Sequence record: OK428535.1 | Reading direction: 5' to 3' (one strand) | DNA: 64,000 bases | Origin: Escherichia phage vB_EcoM_Lh1B | Part shown: in pieces, positions 3,664-63,752 of the stretch | Layout of the letters: each line of letters begins with the position of its first letter | Position numbering within the stretch: position 1 is the first letter of the stretch | Position numbers and translations under genes: made by a program | Notes under the pieces: generated by a model | The model's input: only the letters and a program-made list of their open reading frames with translations | Database searches by the model: none | What the model was told of the DNA's origin: nothing

Positions 3664-4251
3664 ATGACAGAACGTATTTTACGACTGCAAGAGAACAAGT
3701 TAGAAGACCTGCACGTAATGCGTAGTCGTGGCTTGTTTCCGGTGGGGCTTGATGTGAGTGGATTATTAACTGCCGCAGAGCACGGGGATAGGGTCATTAC
3801 AATGCATTCGCGTGGGAGCGAAGTGGTCTCTGCGATTTTCATCGATAAGGTTATTCCAGACTCGGAAAGCGGTAGGGAGGCAGGACACATCATTTACGAA
3901 TACTTTCGCAGCATTCTATACGAGGAAAAGATAAATGTCAAAACTTTTATGGAGTACGCTAAGCGAAATAACTACATCGATGCGCGACTGATGGTCACGG
4001 AAGGCACCCCAACTATAAACGGTAAAGTCCATCATCGTTTACTTGGGGCGCAGTTGCCGAGACTGGGTGAGTTACCGACGNNGNTAGAGCTANACCAAAA
4101 AACAGATTGGCGACACAAAATCGAAGTGCTTCACAAGCTTTACGATTTATCGATCGTTCAAATCAAACTGGTGGACTTCACGCCTGCAAATATGCAAATC
4201 GCTAAGCGAGCATTGGGTTTTCGTATTCTTAACACAACCTTCACATTGTAA
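3664..4251 (+). CDS. hypothetical protein (195 aa)
   Basis: ORF track frame; start moved from GTG 3655 to ATG 3664 with TGAGGTG upstream. Confidence 0.65.
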   Translation: MTERILRLQENKLEDLHVMRSRGLFPVGLDVSGLLTAAEHGDRVITMHSRGSEVVSAIFIDKVIPDSESGREAGHIIYEYFRSILYEEKINVKTFMEYAKRNNYIDARLMVTEGTPTINGKVHHRLLGAQLPRLGELPTXXELXQKTDWRHKIEVLHKLYDLSIVQIKLVDFTPANMQIAKRALGFRILNTTFTL

Positions 4252-4256
4252 AATAT

Positions 4257-4283
4257 CTCAGATATATATTACCTAGGTGAGAG
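4257..4283 (+). promoter_or_regulatory. class A upstream motif (phage promoter-like)
   Basis: CTCAGATATATATTACCTAGGTGAGAG; near-identical copy at 62815-62840. Confidence 0.5.
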
Positions 4284-4303
4284 TTAAGAGATTAACTCAA
4301 CTG

Positions 4304-4331
4304 GCTACCCTCGGGTAGCCTATTCTTTTTT
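4304..4331 (+). terminator. intrinsic terminator
   Basis: GGCTACCC-TCG-GGTAGCC hairpin followed by TATTCTTTTTT. Confidence 0.75.
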
Positions 4332-4334
4332 AAA

Positions 4335-4350
4335 CCAATCGACTATAGAG
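4335..4350 (+). promoter_or_regulatory. class B upstream motif
   Basis: CCAATCGACTATAGAG directly after terminator T-run, about 20 nt before ATG. Confidence 0.4.
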
Positions 4351-4356
4351 TAAAAC

Positions 4357-4758
4357 ATGACTATCAAGAAGTTCTTACAAGCAGTAGTAGTTCTGGCCGC
4401 ATGTGGTATTGCAGCAACTTATGCTTTCGATAAGCCAGACGTGACTGAATACACATCAGCTGATTCGGATTATGGCATTGCACCGAATGAAAAACCGGAA
4501 CTGATGCGTGAGGTCGAACAGTTACAAATCTACAGACTGACGGACGGTAAGAACTGCACAGGGCTGGTTATCGCTGATAAGAAATTGAAAATGTATCAGC
4601 GGTTAATCGACATATCGTGCAATCAACCAAAAGTCACCTCGGTCAGTGTATCGCCACTGGAATTACCGAATTTGGTTGCTGTGAGCTTTTATCACAACGA
4701 TGTGCTCGTCGGTCGCATCACCCTCAATCGTGGAGATATCAAAAATGAAATGCAATAA
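4357..4758 (+). CDS. putative lipoprotein (133 aa)
   Basis: N-terminus MTIKKFLQAVVVLAAC with LAAC lipobox-like signal; preceded by terminator and conserved upstream motifs. Confidence 0.6.
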   Translation: MTIKKFLQAVVVLAACGIAATYAFDKPDVTEYTSADSDYGIAPNEKPELMREVEQLQIYRLTDGKNCTGLVIADKKLKMYQRLIDISCNQPKVTSVSVSPLELPNLVAVSFYHNDVLVGRITLNRGDIKNEMQ

Positions 4759-5236
4759 CGTCAATCGCCNCTTGGCCAAAGTGGTGCTTTTTACTGTGCT
4801 GTTGATGGCAGTTGTTGTTGGGCTACGGATTTCTAAGGCACGCGCTGACGAATTCAGCGGGTTCCAGGGCAGTATTAACGGCAGCATTCCAGCATATACC
4901 CGCACCATCAATCTTAATGATAAGCCGTTCTGGTGCAATGCGCGTAAGCTGCTTAAGAAACAGTGTCGTGTAGTTGACATATCCTTCAACGGTCGTGTCG
5001 CTATCGTACACCGTCCTGGCGATAAAGATTGCCCAGGTGGTTGGTGGGGTGCAGTCGACCGTCACAATGGTGACGCGTTATGGCTTATCCCTAATCGTGA
5101 TGAACTATCAGTGGAGAAAATTTGCAGCAAAGATTTCAGGGCCGGTTTTGTACAGCGACCGGATACCAAAACTCTGGCCTCCATCGCTATGTACTACGGT
5201 ATGGAAACCATCAAAACAATCGACTATTCAGAATAA
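4745..5236 (+). CDS. small exported/membrane-anchored 4-Cys protein (paralog family member)
   Basis: Start set to ATG 4745 (GGAG upstream, 14-nt overlap with previous gene); hydrophobic N-terminus; PFWC motif and 4 Cys shared with next gene. Confidence 0.6.
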   Translation: MKCNNVNRXLAKVVLFTVLLMAVVVGLRISKARADEFSGFQGSINGSIPAYTRTINLNDKPFWCNARKLLKKQCRVVDISFNGRVAIVHRPGDKDCPGGWWGAVDRHNGDALWLIPNRDELSVEKICSKDFRAGFVQRPDTKTLASIAMYYGMETIKTIDYSE

Positions 5237-5258
5237 CTCAAAAAATTGAGGTACTATT

Positions 5259-5669
5259 ATGAAACATTTTTTATTACCAGTTTTACTTGCTACTCTGGCC
5301 ATTAGCTTCTTCGCTCGCGCTGGAAGTATCGAGTTACCAAAAGTTGTTAACGATCACGAATACGGCGGGCCGTTCTGGTGCCAGAACTCTGACGTACAAG
5401 GCGGTAGCTGTCAGATCGTTGCGATGTCCGATAACAACCGTTACCTGTTAGTGAAAACGATGGGCGGTGTCGCATGTGGCGACCCTGAATACGGGGTTAT
5501 TAACATGGCAACAGGTCAGGCCGAATCCATGAACTACAATGATAACCAAGCCTGCAGTGGTGAAGCCGTTGCTGAGTTTACTCGCGACCCAGGTGATAAT
5601 GCCCTGACGGTTATCATGTACGACCCTACGATTAAGAAAAACGTGGGCATCAATAAACTCGACTTTTAA
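5259..5669 (+). CDS. small secreted 4-Cys protein (paralog family member)
   Basis: Signal-peptide-like MKHFLLPVLLATLAISFFARAGS; PFWC motif; 4 Cys. Confidence 0.65.
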   Translation: MKHFLLPVLLATLAISFFARAGSIELPKVVNDHEYGGPFWCQNSDVQGGSCQIVAMSDNNRYLLVKTMGGVACGDPEYGVINMATGQAESMNYNDNQACSGEAVAEFTRDPGDNALTVIMYDPTIKKNVGINKLDF

Positions 5670-5682
5670 GTAAGGAAACAAC

Positions 5683-6066
5683 ATGCGTGGACTTATGGGT
5701 ATTATCGCGGCGGTGTTCTTGACCGCTTCTGCTTCAGCTACAACCAGCGTAGAAGATTTACTGCCAGGCACACCGTATCAGTACAACCCGCCTTCATTCG
5801 AAGTCTGTACTGGCGACAATGGCAGATGTGAAGAAGTCAGCCGTCACGACGAGTATATCCTGGTCCACGCAAAGGGCGAGGAAACTTGTCCGGCTGGTTA
5901 CTACTTCTTGTTGAACTCAAAGGCACAAGAGATTGTGCCGGTAGAGACAATAACGTGCGACCCGACGCTTCGCGCGTCGCTCGCTTACAATACGAAAACC
6001 AAACAACGCCTCCTGGTTATTGAACAGCAAGGGGTGGTGCGTGGTTCAGTAGCGCTCGACCAGTAA
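5683..6066 (+). CDS. small secreted 4-Cys protein (paralog family member)
   Basis: Signal-peptide-like MRGLMGIIAAVFLTASASA; C-x7-C plus two further Cys; AAGGAAA upstream. Confidence 0.65.
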   Translation: MRGLMGIIAAVFLTASASATTSVEDLLPGTPYQYNPPSFEVCTGDNGRCEEVSRHDEYILVHAKGEETCPAGYYFLLNSKAQEIVPVETITCDPTLRASLAYNTKTKQRLLVIEQQGVVRGSVALDQ

Positions 6067-6077
6067 CCGAAAAGTTT

Positions 6078-6100
6078 TCAGACAGATGTTATAACGTGAG
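6078..6100 (+). promoter_or_regulatory. class A upstream motif, divergent copy
   Basis: TCAGACAGATGTTATAACGTGAG followed by small hairpin 6096-6117. Confidence 0.35.
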
Positions 6101-6122
6101 ATGACGACCCATCTCACTTTGG

Positions 6123-6166
6123 CCCTGCGGTGATTTCCCCAACACTTAGCCGCAGGGTCCTTTTTA
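6123..6166 (+). terminator. hairpin with T-run (terminator/attenuator-like, long loop)
   Basis: CCCTGCGG...CCGCAGGG stem with about 20-nt loop followed by TCCTTTTT. Confidence 0.4.
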
Positions 6167-6178
6167 ATCGACTATTAC
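6165..6178 (+). promoter_or_regulatory. class B upstream motif
   Basis: TAATCGACTATTAC after hairpin/T-run, before GTAAGGATT RBS region. Confidence 0.45.
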
Positions 6179-6195
6179 TCGTAAGGATTAAGCAA

Positions 6196-6696
6196 ATGAA
6201 CATGAACATTCTCGACGATACCCGTTCTTCTTTCTTTACTCAGATGAACGTCAATCCCGAACGTACCCNTGCCATTCTTTCCACTGGCTGGAAGTTAAAG
6301 CTGTTAGGCGAGTTAACCCTAAACCGCACCGACTGGCCAGAAGAAGCGACCGTATTGATTAACAGCATTCACAGCGAGTGGCTAGATGCTGCGTTGAATG
6401 CCCCACAACTACGTCCGTACTATCGGATGCTTCATGCGGGTTATGAAGTATACCGCAAAGGTTGGTACGCTGCAGCCACTTATTGCAAAACCCCTGAAGG
6501 TCGTGAAGACAACACTGTCGACCACGTATTAGTAAACAATTTCTGGGGCGACCAAATCGAAGTCTTACAACTTTCCACCGGNGACCGTATTCCGGCCTGT
6601 GAGTTATTCGAAACTAACGCACAAATGTACGAACCATATGCAATGATTCGTGGCCGTAAGGTCCCAATCATTTCCCTTATGCATATGGGGCTGTAA
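6196..6696 (+). CDS. hypothetical protein (166 aa)
   Basis: Start set to ATG 6196 downstream of hairpins and TTAATCGACTATTAC motif; track ORF starts further upstream at 6130. Confidence 0.6.
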   Translation: MNMNILDDTRSSFFTQMNVNPERTXAILSTGWKLKLLGELTLNRTDWPEEATVLINSIHSEWLDAALNAPQLRPYYRMLHAGYEVYRKGWYAAATYCKTPEGREDNTVDHVLVNNFWGDQIEVLQLSTXDRIPACELFETNAQMYEPYAMIRGRKVPIISLMHMGL

Positions 6697-7388: not shown

Positions 7389-7420
7389 GGAACCCTTCGG
7401 GGTTCCATTTNTTCTTTTTT
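7389..7420 (+). terminator. intrinsic terminator
   Basis: GGAACCC-TTCG-GGGTTCC hairpin followed by T-rich run. Confidence 0.75.
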
Positions 7421-7473
7421 ACGCATGACCTTTTGGATATGAACNNCTAATNCTTTCTCATTANAAGGCAAAC

Positions 7474-22620: not shown

Positions 22621-22646
22621 TGAGATAGATATTATCTACAGGGACG
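22621..22646 (+). promoter_or_regulatory. class A upstream motif (phage promoter-like)
   Basis: TGAGATAGATATTATCTACAGGGACG with internal palindrome TAGATATTATCTA. Confidence 0.45.
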
Positions 22647-23801: not shown

Positions 23802-24209
23802 ATGTTAAAGGTGTATAGCGAGTCATTGATGGACTTGCAAGAGTATCTAAAGCATGTGGAAATTAACGGCAACCGTGGAATGATATACTCCATGGTTGTC
23901 GAGATTTTAATTAAAATCGTGCTTGTTTCATTCCACGTAGCAGAAAATGGCACTGCTGTACCAGGAGATGTTTATAAAGGCGTTATTAAGCATCTTAGCG
24001 AGCGCTACAGTTGTTTACGTGAACCGGATATCTTTAATGAGGTGCAGCGTGTTGTGTTGCTTATCCTCGACAACCGTGAAGACTTGGCGTACAAGCTTGC
24101 GCATGAATTGGCAGACACGTCACAGCACGGTGGACAACTGAAATATAACGTTGTGGATCTCGTAGCGTGCAGATACTGGTATACGCAGCCCGAGGTAAGT
24201 AACTTTTAA
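23802..24209 (+). CDS. hypothetical protein (135 aa)
   Basis: ATG 23802 with GAGGGG upstream within track ORF. Confidence 0.6.
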   Translation: MLKVYSESLMDLQEYLKHVEINGNRGMIYSMVVEILIKIVLVSFHVAENGTAVPGDVYKGVIKHLSERYSCLREPDIFNEVQRVVLLILDNREDLAYKLAHELADTSQHGGQLKYNVVDLVACRYWYTQPEVSNF

Positions 24210-25303: not shown

Positions 25304-25338
25304 CGGACACTCTTCGGGGTGTCCGTAGTTTTATTTTA
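25304..25338 (+). terminator. intrinsic terminator
   Basis: CGGACAC-TCTTCGG-GGTGTCCG hairpin followed by TAGTTTTATTTT. Confidence 0.75.
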
Positions 25339-25352
25339 ATCGACCATTAATC
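25337..25352 (+). promoter_or_regulatory. class B upstream motif
   Basis: TAATCGACCATTAATC directly after terminator T-run. Confidence 0.45.
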
Positions 25353-25366
25353 TAAAGGAGTATTAA

Positions 25367-26290
25367 ATGGACAGCTTTCTTTTTGATTTGGCAGAATCGG
25401 TAAATGTAGATGTAATCGGTATGCGCGAATCCCCGAGTAATTTCTTAAACGGTCTTACTAAAATCGACGAACGTGTGAAATCCAGAAGTGGAGATCCCGC
25501 CATCATCGAGCAATACGCAATAGCCCATTGTGGCGAGATAGGCCAGCACTTTATACCGATTGAGGCGTTCCTAAAGAACTGCTTCGCCGAAGAATGCACC
25601 GCAGACTTCCTGTCTCTTGCCTACGGCTGGCGATACGGGGGTATCCAAATGGAATTTGATCTTAATATTTTTGAACAAGTTCTACTTGGCGACGTTCTCA
25701 CTGAGATACCACGCAGCTGGATAGACAAGATTCCCGGTTGGGCCGTCTCCTTTTCAGTGTGCTATCGCGCTAAAGATATCGGTATCCAAGAAAAGACTTA
25801 CGTTTTCGGTCGGCGAATGTTTAAAGGGAAAGATTGTTTAACAATGATGATTTTTGGAAAACGTATCGAGGGGGAAACCTTTGAAATCGTGGACGTGGGT
25901 GACGGCTTTGTATCCTTGCGTGTGGCGGAAACTGGTACGCCGGCCAATGAGAAAACGTTACGCATTGTCGGCGCTACCATGTTTACATTCTCACTGATCC
26001 CGCACAACCCTACACCCGTCAAACTGAGACAATTAACTGGAAAGAAACGTATCGCCAATTACCACATTGAACCAAAATCTAAACCGACTGTCCTCTCCAC
26101 CGTAAAAGCACAAAGCGAGTATCTTGAAGAATTTGATACTGATACGGAGAAAAGAACACAAGGTAGCAGATGTGCGCATATGCGTCGTGCACACTGGTGT
26201 ACTTACTGGCTCGGTCCACGTGACGGGAATCGGACAAAGATTTTGAAATGGATACCGCCGACATTTGTCAACGGTTCTAAATGCAAATAA
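25367..26290 (+). CDS. hypothetical protein (307 aa)
   Basis: AAAGGAG upstream; Cys/His-containing C-terminus; ends at bidirectional terminator. Confidence 0.7.
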   Translation: MDSFLFDLAESVNVDVIGMRESPSNFLNGLTKIDERVKSRSGDPAIIEQYAIAHCGEIGQHFIPIEAFLKNCFAEECTADFLSLAYGWRYGGIQMEFDLNIFEQVLLGDVLTEIPRSWIDKIPGWAVSFSVCYRAKDIGIQEKTYVFGRRMFKGKDCLTMMIFGKRIEGETFEIVDVGDGFVSLRVAETGTPANEKTLRIVGATMFTFSLIPHNPTPVKLRQLTGKKRIANYHIEPKSKPTVLSTVKAQSEYLEEFDTDTEKRTQGSRCAHMRRAHWCTYWLGPRDGNRTKILKWIPPTFVNGSKCK

Positions 26291-26294
26291 AATA

Positions 26295-26350
26295 AAGCCT
26301 ACCCACTCCCGTAAGGGGAGTGGGTACTGCTTACTTNNTNTTTATTTTTT
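26295..26350. terminator. bidirectional intrinsic terminator
   Basis: CCCACTCCC-GTAA-GGGGAGTGGG hairpin with A-run upstream and T-run downstream, between convergent genes. Confidence 0.7.
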
Positions 26351-31157: not shown

Positions 31158-31184
31158 CTCAGACAGATATTATCTATCCGAGAC
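31158..31184 (+). promoter_or_regulatory. class A upstream motif (phage promoter-like)
   Basis: CTCAGACAGATATTATCTATCCGAGAC preceded by AAAAGAACT as at 62806. Confidence 0.45.
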
Positions 31185-62814: not shown

Positions 62815-62840
62815 CTGAGATATATATTACTTAGGTGAGC
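62815..62840 (+). promoter_or_regulatory. class A upstream motif (phage promoter-like)
   Basis: CTGAGATATATATTACTTAGGTGAGC; downstream of terminator, followed by hairpin AGCGTTA-CACG-TAACGCT (62838-62856). Confidence 0.5.
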
Positions 62841-62856
62841 GTTACACGTTAACGCT

Positions 62857-62872
62857 TTAATCGACTATTACC
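62857..62872 (+). promoter_or_regulatory. class B upstream motif
   Basis: TTAATCGACTATTACC after hairpin, before GAAGGAG RBS. Confidence 0.45.
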
Positions 62873-62889: not shown

Positions 62890-63288
62890 ATGACTAACCA
62901 ACTACGCCAAGACCCGTTTGTTGCCATGATGCTTTGTGCTAAAGCCGAGAGCAACGAAGCCGATTTAATTCGTCTGTTGACTGATGACGAATACCTTATC
63001 TCTGAACGTGATAAACGTTTAGAAGAACTCTATAAGCCAGAAACCGGTGAATCGCTCGGTAATCAAAACGCCTGGAAATTTCTTATTCTCGTAGCTGATG
63101 AAAAATGGCGAGCAGAAAATCCCATCGTCTGCGATATTACAGACTTACCGTACAAATACGGCGGACTCATCACTAGCGACCTGCATCTTAAAGCGTTCTT
63201 TGCTGGTGAAGCAATTCAAGAACTGCAAGATGTTCTTGTTACAGCAACAAACACTTTGAGACGTTTACGCGCTGAGCAGCTAATCTGA
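62890..63288 (+). CDS. hypothetical protein (132 aa)
   Basis: GAAGGAG upstream; preceded by class A/class B motifs. Confidence 0.6.
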   Translation: MTNQLRQDPFVAMMLCAKAESNEADLIRLLTDDEYLISERDKRLEELYKPETGESLGNQNAWKFLILVADEKWRAENPIVCDITDLPYKYGGLITSDLHLKAFFAGEAIQELQDVLVTATNTLRRLRAEQLI

Positions 63289-63732: not shown

Positions 63733-63736
63733 TAGT

Positions 63737-63752
63737 TAATCGACCATTATCG
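63737..63752 (+). promoter_or_regulatory. class B upstream motif
   Basis: TTAATCGACCATTATC about 15 nt before the TAAGGAA RBS of the HD-domain gene. Confidence 0.45.

Follow-up and report, generated by a model that had tools for sequence, protein, structure and literature searches.

What is the short conserved sequence that lies between a leader hairpin and a ribosome-binding site at positions 62857–62872 of this phage DNA, and does it act as a promoter or as a signal in the mRNA leader? We analysed a stretch of 64 000 nucleotides from Escherichia phage vB_EcoM_Lh1B (OK428535.1), referred to here as the window. The original prediction for this DNA had set the sequence apart as a conserved motif, class B, different from a first recurrent motif, class A, and had left two readings for it, a different promoter class or a leader/translation-control element. 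The window shares 96–99% identity with Salmonella phage SPN3US and related phages (Seoulvirus), and its positions 1–64000 correspond to ∼161185–225400 of SPN3US (NC_027402.1). SPN3US-like phages are phiKZ-related, nucleus-forming jumbo phages that encode two multisubunit RNA polymerases; the virion enzyme (vRNAP) transcribes the early genes and the non-virion enzyme (nvRNAP) the middle and late genes (PMC7598289, PMC13282480). Regulation beyond the early promoter is poorly understood in RNAP-encoding jumbo phages, and according to a review of 2020 their middle or late promoters escape bioinformatic prediction (PMC7598289). Our literature searches found neither a published description of class B nor a promoter, start-site or transcriptome study of SPN3US-like phages. 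Complete genomes were taken for SPN3US, Erwinia phage Asesino (Erskinevirus) and Erwinia phage Caitlin (Machinavirus).

Class B copies in the window

Class B has an oriented core of 12 bases, 5'-AwTCGACYATTA-3', located just upstream of ribosome-binding sites (Table 1). The exact 14-mer TTAATCGACYATTA is present four times in the window, at 6164, 25336, 62857 and 63736, always on the + strand, against an expected count of 0.00 in dinucleotide-preserving shuffles. The ATG follows the end of the 14-mer after 18, 17, 19 and 17 nt, respectively, and a strong Shine-Dalgarno (SD) sequence, (A)AGGAG, follows directly downstream of these exact copies. Five copies had been predicted. Four of them proved to be exact, with coordinates off by at most 1 nt, while the fifth, near 4335, is degenerate (CCAATCGACTATAG; 10 of 14 positions matched, core AATCGACTAT retained) and ends 8 nt before the ATG. 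A good copy, AATCGACTATTC at 5218–5229, had been missed.

The statement that the copies mostly follow a terminator T-run or a hairpin was borne out. The copies at 4335, 6164 and 25336 are preceded by a G+C-rich terminator-like hairpin with a T-run and the copy at 62857 by a 5' leader hairpin; the copy at 63736 lies 3 nt past the upstream stop codon. Class A and class B in tandem can likewise be read from the sequence at the two loci that had been named, 4260–4348 and 62818–62870, and we found a third such tandem at 6080–6177, in which class A is degenerate.

Table 1. Class B sites in the window and the elements of their leaders
Feature	Position	Strand	Score (bits)	Context
Class A AGATATATATTAC + TTAGGTG, putative vRNAP promoter/start region	62818..62837	+		By phiKZ analogy
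5' leader hairpin AGCGTTA-CACGT-TAACGCT	62838..62856	+		RNAfold; between class A and class B
Class B core AATCGACTATTA	62859..62870	+	19.7	Followed by 5 nt, SD AAGGAG and ATG 62890
Downstream gene, 132 aa, function unknown	62890..63288	+		SPN3US 223349-223747
Class B core AATCGACCATTA	63738..63749	+	20.1	17 nt before ATG 63767 (HD-domain gene)
Class B core AATCGACCATTA	25338..25349	+		After terminator-like hairpin 25305-25324 and T-run; ATG 25367 (307-aa gene)
Class B core AATCGACTATTA	6166..6177	+		ATG 6196 (166-aa gene)
Degenerate class A AGACAGATGTTAT, 5' hairpin 6096-6117, terminator-like hairpin 6123-6157, T-run 6161-6165	6080..6165	+		Direct reading
Class A, 5' hairpin, terminator-like hairpin (4303-4320) and T-run	4260..4330	+
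Degenerate class B AATCGACTATAG	4337..4348	+	15.0	8 nt before ATG 4357; no clear SD
Extra class B AATCGACTATTC	5218..5229	+	17.2	29 nt before ATG 5259; in 3' end of upstream ORF
Weak ACTCGACTTTTA	5657-5668		11.3	Noise level; just before gene 5683

We compared these leaders with those of the related phages. At 62859–62870 class B lies at about +27 from the class A start predicted there, and Asesino gp271, the ortholog of the 62890 gene, retains class A, the hairpin and ACTCGACTATAA. No class A is found ahead of the copy at 63738–63749, where the motif is kept before the Asesino HD gene gp272. Class B of the 6196 gene is kept before its tblastn-matched ortholog, Asesino gp205, and is also present before Caitlin gp194, a counterpart by position only (tblastn gave no match); a covarying hairpin with a T-run precedes class B in all three cases. 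The orthologous sites of the 4357 gene read AATCGACTGTAG in SPN3US and ATTCGACTATTG before Asesino gp201. A weak TCGACAATTG precedes Asesino gp235, the counterpart of the 25367 gene.

The 307-aa gene at 25367–26290 has no counterpart in SPN3US and is syntenic in Asesino (gp235, 44% identity). The junction of the SPN3US deletion is a short TTCTAAAT repeat, and we rejected a class B-mediated loss of the gene because the junction maps to this repeat. Two further observations concern the records. Ambiguous bases (N) are scattered in intergenic stretches at ∼7405–7470 and 26335–26345 of the window, so the source assembly is incompletely resolved there. The RefSeq start of SPN3US gene 23886 (region 23859–23886) has probably been placed 27 nt too far 3': GGAG stands 10 nt ahead of an alternative in-frame ATG at 23859, and the N-terminus read from that ATG (MKI...) is like that of the annotated Asesino ortholog.

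Enrichment in SPN3US and shape of the motif

Motif enrichment had been proposed as a check of the prediction, and it was run on the closest complete genome, SPN3US. A weight matrix built from 11 Asesino sites only was applied to SPN3US with a cut-off of at least 17 bits. It gave 12 matches on the + strand and none on the − strand, compared to 0.38 expected per strand; none of 300 shuffles gave more than 3. For ten of the 12 matches a + strand start codon follows within 45 nt, and zones of this kind make up 4.4% of the positions.

The information profile of 23 sites from SPN3US, the window and Asesino has the core A-w-T-C-G-A-C-Y-A-T-(T)-(A). CGAC does not vary at all, and the one core position that does vary is always occupied by a pyrimidine (C or T). 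The flanks of the motif as first described (TT...) are weaker than this core. At the same 23 sites, 0–7 nt separate the end of class B from the SD. Apart from the helix-turn-helix (HTH; HTH_3) gene and the HD gene, the targets are of unknown function by PHROG and Pfam annotation; the 63767 gene owes its HD label to the annotation of the public record only, and Pfam gave no match for it.

Conservation and concerted change between phage lineages

Class B is kept upstream of the Asesino orthologs despite a protein identity of only 29–83%. The SPN3US genes whose orthologs have kept it are 4501, 23886, 57177, 65485, 94310, 165783, 167622, 223349 and 224226. The Asesino gene at the position of SPN3US 114059 also has class B (tblastn found no ortholog for it), and the weak SPN3US site 56363 is lost in Asesino. 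Because the motif is retained at the same place in related phage genera, class B is a real and apparently undescribed regulatory signal.

In Caitlin we found eight copies of a changed form, TYGAYYATCA (T[CT]GA[CT][CT]ATCA), all fused to AGGAG/AGGAA without a spacer; the spacing between motif and SD is therefore constant within each lineage. These copies precede the HTH gene and the positional match of the window's 6196 gene, and also stand behind class A leaders or terminators. The Machinavirus change thus occurred in concert, ATTA being replaced by ATCA and the spacer being lost. In metagenomic relatives the HTH leader carries the variants ACCGACTTGTTAA, ACGACTTGTTCTA and AACGACTATCA at the same place, and in the HTH leader of Machina and Huxley class B is unrecognisable. 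Pattern scans of IMG/VR with the motif and its lineage variants gave mostly random single matches, and the Miami-type AAATCGATATTAC and Huxley-type GTACCCACAAGGAG were not multi-copy there as exact strings.

The motif, its strand and position, its conservation and its lineage-wide co-variation are direct observations. To judge from these comparisons, class B is functional, old and evolving in concert within a lineage. The claim that it is a second, distinct and functional element is well supported by its strong enrichment, its strand specificity, its link to gene starts and its retention in three genera.

The leader of the Xre-type HTH gene

The best-conserved class B is found in the leader of a gene outside the window (SPN3US 94310–94675), which encodes an HTH protein of 121 aa with an HTH_3/Cro-C1 domain. 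We compared this leader in five phages, SPN3US, Asesino, phiEaH2, pEa_SNUABM_29 and SPAsTU. All five carry TCGACTATTAA(T)CTAAAGGAGTATT with little or no change, hardly any base differs from TCGACTATTAA up to the ATG, and the adjoining hairpin shows compensatory substitutions.

Synteny of the HTH gene extends over many jumbo phages of enterobacteria and Aeromonas. Where its flanks were inspected, in Erwinia and Salmonella jumbo phages (loci L032–L056), it lies downstream of the thymidylate kinase gene, either directly or past one inserted gene, and tblastn matches of the HTH protein reach Klebsiella and Aeromonas jumbo phages. Among the proteins of these RNAP-encoding phages, it may be the sole classical transcription factor that can be recognised.

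SPAsTU has lost the class A promoter directly before the HTH gene. The order there is class A–hairpin, B–SD–inserted gene and B–SD–HTH gene (L035, 180–735), and the stop codon of the inserted gene supplies the first bases of the class B of the HTH gene. On this one example, the 'B–SD–gene' unit seems to be mobile as a module.

Promoter-like signals and leader anatomy

The class A family comprises ∼17 sites in SPN3US, all on the + strand, with the consensus tcAGATA[TG]AT[AG]TTA[CT]cTAGGTGAG; those in the window are at 4260–4298, 6080–6117, 22623–22635, 31161–31173 and 62818–62856. By analogy they look like phiKZ-type early promoters, in which an AT-rich extended −10 is present as in class A (PMC7598289, PMC8244752). 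In the best-matching subclass the predicted transcript opens with a hairpin of 7–12 bp. The stems of the leader hairpins vary in sequence, with the pairing kept across paralogous and orthologous leaders. Behind class A and the hairpin, class B is located at about +27 to +30 of the predicted starts and is predicted to be unpaired before the SD (RNAfold).

At 4260–4330 and 6080–6165 an early-promoter-like site is followed within 45–85 nt by a strong intrinsic-terminator-like hairpin. This arrangement predicts short leader transcripts of ∼55–80 nt (an attenuator or a 5'UTR-derived sRNA), and the layout at 4260–4330 would give a short leader transcript ending ahead of class B. Both layouts are kept in Asesino, and the second also in Caitlin. 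They are similar (4260–4348 and 6080–6177) to the prematurely terminated 5'UTR transcripts of phage 201phi2-1 (PMC11512511). The 49-nt class A and hairpin stretch at 4250–4298 is 92% identical in Machinavirus phages that otherwise have no megablast-level similarity to this part of the window.

For nine of the 12 SPN3US class B sites, another promoter-like site is found 30–90 nt further upstream. At SPN3US 57177 and Asesino 58180, class B stands 4 nt after a conserved TTAC[GA]-N14-TATG, i.e. at about +5. The composite TT[TC]AC[GA]-N13-15-TATG occurs 17 times on the SPN3US + strand against 3.0 expected, and by analogy it resembles a combination of the phiKZ middle (−22) and late (TATG) elements. 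In the window, composite T-run/TT[TC]AC[GA]-N13-15-TATG sites are present at 7418, 27144 and 35836 (+ strand), and the composite signal is usually found directly behind terminators, 20–35 nt ahead of start codons. The class A-like sites and the composite TATG signals together provide plausible promoter sets for both phage polymerases.

A putative operator in the mRNA leader

The reading that we favour, still tentatively, is that class B is an RNA-level operator in the mRNA leader, placed beside the ribosome-binding site and read by a phage factor. As a cis-acting signal it would belong to the region in which translation of about a dozen genes, most of them early, is initiated, and in the RNA it would form an unstructured part of the leader or intercistronic junction, 0–7 nt before the SD. 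A sequence-specific phage-encoded factor would read the class B RNA; candidates are a translational repressor, an activator or an endoribonuclease. The outcome would be a joint control of the translation or stability of this set of mRNAs, whichever promoter made them. What we infer here is where transcription starts, that class B acts as RNA and that a phage factor exists.

The evidence leans to this reading because class B lies mostly downstream of the predicted starts, tracks the SD and precedes internal cistrons. Of the readings considered, it accounts for the largest share of the observations with the fewest assumptions. It is a sense-strand signal in several initiation regions, with one copy per cistron, and it follows the ribosome-binding site and no promoter. 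It falls inside predicted transcripts of two promoter types. Internal cistrons are preceded by it in SPAsTU; in the window, class B or B-like sequences stand before genes 4357, 5259, 6196 and 63767, with a noise-level match before 5683. The motif is also oriented, asymmetric and predicted to be unpaired, and both phage polymerases already have plausible promoter sets.

We looked for possible RNA partners of the motif. Complementarity to E. coli 16S, 23S and 5S rRNA was not found beyond chance: the best run has 8 pairs with G-U allowed, and shuffled motifs commonly reach 7–9. A search for an antisense partner (G-U allowed) in SPN3US, Asesino and Caitlin returned only the motif sites themselves, and Rfam 15 gave no family match at gathering score in the whole window. 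Within the limits of these tests we exclude rRNA pairing as well as an antisense partner, and the reader is therefore probably a protein. The concerted lineage change, the drift at the same HTH gene and the lack of rRNA complementarity make a phage factor more likely than a host factor.

Some observations count against the favoured reading. Three to five copies lie right behind strong terminator-like hairpins and would be included in an mRNA by read-through only. A sharp, lineage-specific 10–12-mer is more typical of phage promoters than of the known translational operators, which are degenerate. Class B has a partial dyad, and its best-conserved copy precedes the gene of a DNA-binding protein. 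To be counted here also are the many other SPN3US genes that show a terminator–SD–ATG layout without a promoter-like motif; because of these genes, upstream terminators are uninformative, and we rejected the argument that an upstream terminator makes class B a promoter. Of the two readings left by the original prediction, the leader element is thus the one that the evidence leans to and the promoter class is less favoured, although sequence proves neither.

A more specific picture is possible, albeit doubtful. A post-transcriptional regulon may exist in enterobacterial nucleus-forming jumbo phages, in which a sequence-specific, phage-encoded factor recognises UCGACYAU by the SD, so that a conserved set of ∼12 early genes, including the only recognisable HTH regulator, is switched off or on as a block whichever RNAP transcribes them, the 'B–SD–gene' unit being portable and taking this control along when genes are shuffled.

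Class B as a possible third promoter class

We consider it somewhat unlikely that class B is a third promoter class, used by a phage RNAP form with a specificity of its own (e.g. nvRNAP with another factor). Transcription would start inside the motif or at its 3' end, and genes with both class A and class B would be transcribed early and later. Dual early and later promoters are known in the AR9 'continuous' genes and in phiKZ gene 054 (PMC7598289, PMC8244752). A sharp, oriented 12-mer just before genes that changes in concert between lineages is consistent with this proposal, and so are the several copies directly behind terminator-like hairpins and the 3' half of the motif, YATTAC-CT, which is like the −10-like TATTAC-CT of class A. 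The frame AAtc-N6-TA has the geometry of the AR9 late promoter, AACA-N6-T[A/G]+1 (PMC7598289), but the fit is only loose: two of the four upstream bases differ, and the middle six are conserved in class B. The AR9 late promoter has AACA at −11 to −8, T[A/G] at −1/+1 and a uracil-containing template strand, and the phage group studied here is described as having thymine-containing DNA (PMC7598289).

However, the start would have to fall within the motif, which in Caitlin, where the SD follows at 0 nt, would leave leaders of only 10–19 nt; phiKZ leaders are mostly 31–40 nt (PMC8244752). The motif begins 4 nt past the conserved TATG start signal at SPN3US 57177 and Asesino 58180, nine of the 12 SPN3US copies have another promoter-like site ahead of them, and some copies stand at junctions between internal cistrons that have no terminator. 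The promoter reading would require a third specificity. Early-like and middle/late-like signals are already present in this genome.

Comparison with the phiKZ promoter types also disfavours a promoter. Class B has no match to the phiKZ TATG, to class A or to the middle motif of phiKZ, a TACT at −22 that follows an A-rich run. Its invariant CGAC core and the lack of a T-rich upstream tract set it apart from phiKZ-type early promoters, in which ∼10 strongly conserved AT-rich positions are centred near −10 behind a T-rich tract; the class A family, AGATA[TG]AT[AG]TTA[CT], is the one that fits this type. Class B is also without the TATG (T-3 A-2 T-1 G+1) of the late type, of which all four bases are required. 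For a phiKZ-type middle promoter, the position 22 nt past GACT coincides with the ATG in SPN3US and falls inside the CDS in Caitlin; the T-run with TTTAC[GA] ∼18 nt before TATG fits the phiKZ middle class better than class B does. We also rejected a role for class B as −22 element in a TATG promoter, since no TATG follows at the right distance. No sigma-70 promoter (−35/−10, spacing of 16–18 nt) was detected at the class B copies in 4000–6400. A resemblance to T7-like promoters (TAATACGACT...) is superficial, with a spacing unfit to any start, and we know of no single-subunit RNAP in these phages.

Less likely readings: a DNA operator, an enhancer or a passive sequence

It is unlikely, in our estimate, that class B is a DNA operator on which the HTH protein forms a roadblock between promoter and CDS, repressing its own gene and a small regulon, with either polymerase, in the manner of a lac operator placed after a T7 promoter. 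The HTH gene does carry the best-conserved copy, encodes an HTH_3/Cro-C1 domain and is widely syntenic, and phages with a different recognition helix (SQISAIKNERE versus STLGAVKNGRS) show a drifted motif in the HTH leader. The site therefore adjoins the regulator's own gene and co-varies with it, but this co-variation is confounded by shared ancestry. A partial dyad, AAT-nG-A-Cn-ATT, is also in favour, and weak PDB sequence matches of the protein include restriction-modification controller proteins. Such controller proteins bind GACT...AGTC boxes adjoining their own genes.

The dyad, however, is short and imperfect, with 4 or 5 of 6 symmetric pairs, and its centre, CGACY, is the most conserved part and is asymmetric: the C at position 0 is invariant, and its symmetric partner is C or T, never G. 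The outer arms are not conserved in Asesino, and the copies all point the same way with respect to their genes. The constant distance to the SD within a lineage would not be required for a roadblock, and the two operators in one operon of SPAsTU would be redundant.

Highly improbable is a host-ribosome translational enhancer (rRNA or S1 contact), comparable to the T7 gene 10 epsilon sequence, or a passive hitch-hiker on a 'B–SD' recombination cassette, comparable to the T4 PeSL cassettes: the RBS-adjacent position, the A/U-rich flanks, the identical extended cassette AATCTAAAGGAGTATT carried by three copies and the module behaviour in SPAsTU would agree with these, but the invariant part is the G+C-containing CGAC and no A/U tract, motif and spacing are lineage-specific although Salmonella and Erwinia host translation is nearly the same, and the motif is kept at orthologs with diverged flanks, which argues against neutral hitch-hiking.

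Significance

Class B is best filed as a phage cis-regulatory signal that defines a small regulon. The analysis defines a sharply conserved second signal, together with a complete site list for three genomes, a conserved target set and the lineage variants. Should class B prove to be an RNA operator, no regulon-wide translational control would have been described before it in this phage family. Should it prove to be a promoter, these phages would have their first well-defined class outside the early ones, and synthetic biology in Salmonella and Erwinia a compact regulatory part.

Comparison with known systems

For an operator in the mRNA leader, the nearest parallel is found in phage T4, where RegA is a translational repressor and RegB an endoribonuclease cutting GGAG, both acting on early mRNAs. 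As with these, early mRNAs would share a short RBS signal, with one copy per cistron, under a joint post-transcriptional control by the phage. RegA sites, however, are degenerate and overlap the AUG, and RegB cuts inside the SD, whereas class B is a sharp 10–12-mer upstream of the SD. We identified no homolog of either protein here, and the RNA-level action of class B is a proposed one.

T4 PeSL consists of an early promoter and a stem-loop repeated before many ORFs, and mediates modular shuffling. The cassette of ∼85 nt described here (class A, stem-loop, class B and SD) similarly stands before many small early ORFs, and in SPAsTU a gene has been inserted at the cassette boundary. PeSL is without a separate RBS-adjacent motif, and only one example points to recombination at class B. 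With the operators of the Xre family (Cro/CI type and controller proteins), class B shares a short partial-dyad motif that lies upstream of the regulator's own gene and is co-conserved with it; it differs in its asymmetric core, fixed orientation and coupling to the SD, and in lying downstream of the promoter rather than overlapping it.

AR9 and phiKZ offer a second element of 12 nt downstream of the early promoter of the same gene, which begins with AA/AT and ends with TA (PMC7598289, PMC8244752). In class B all the core positions are conserved and not only the two ends, and AR9 recognition needs uracil-containing DNA. With phiKZ early promoters class B has in common the strand, the gene neighbourhoods and a TATTAC-CT-like 3' half; in place of the AT-rich extended −10, however, it has the G+C-containing CGAC, and it sits within the predicted class A transcript.
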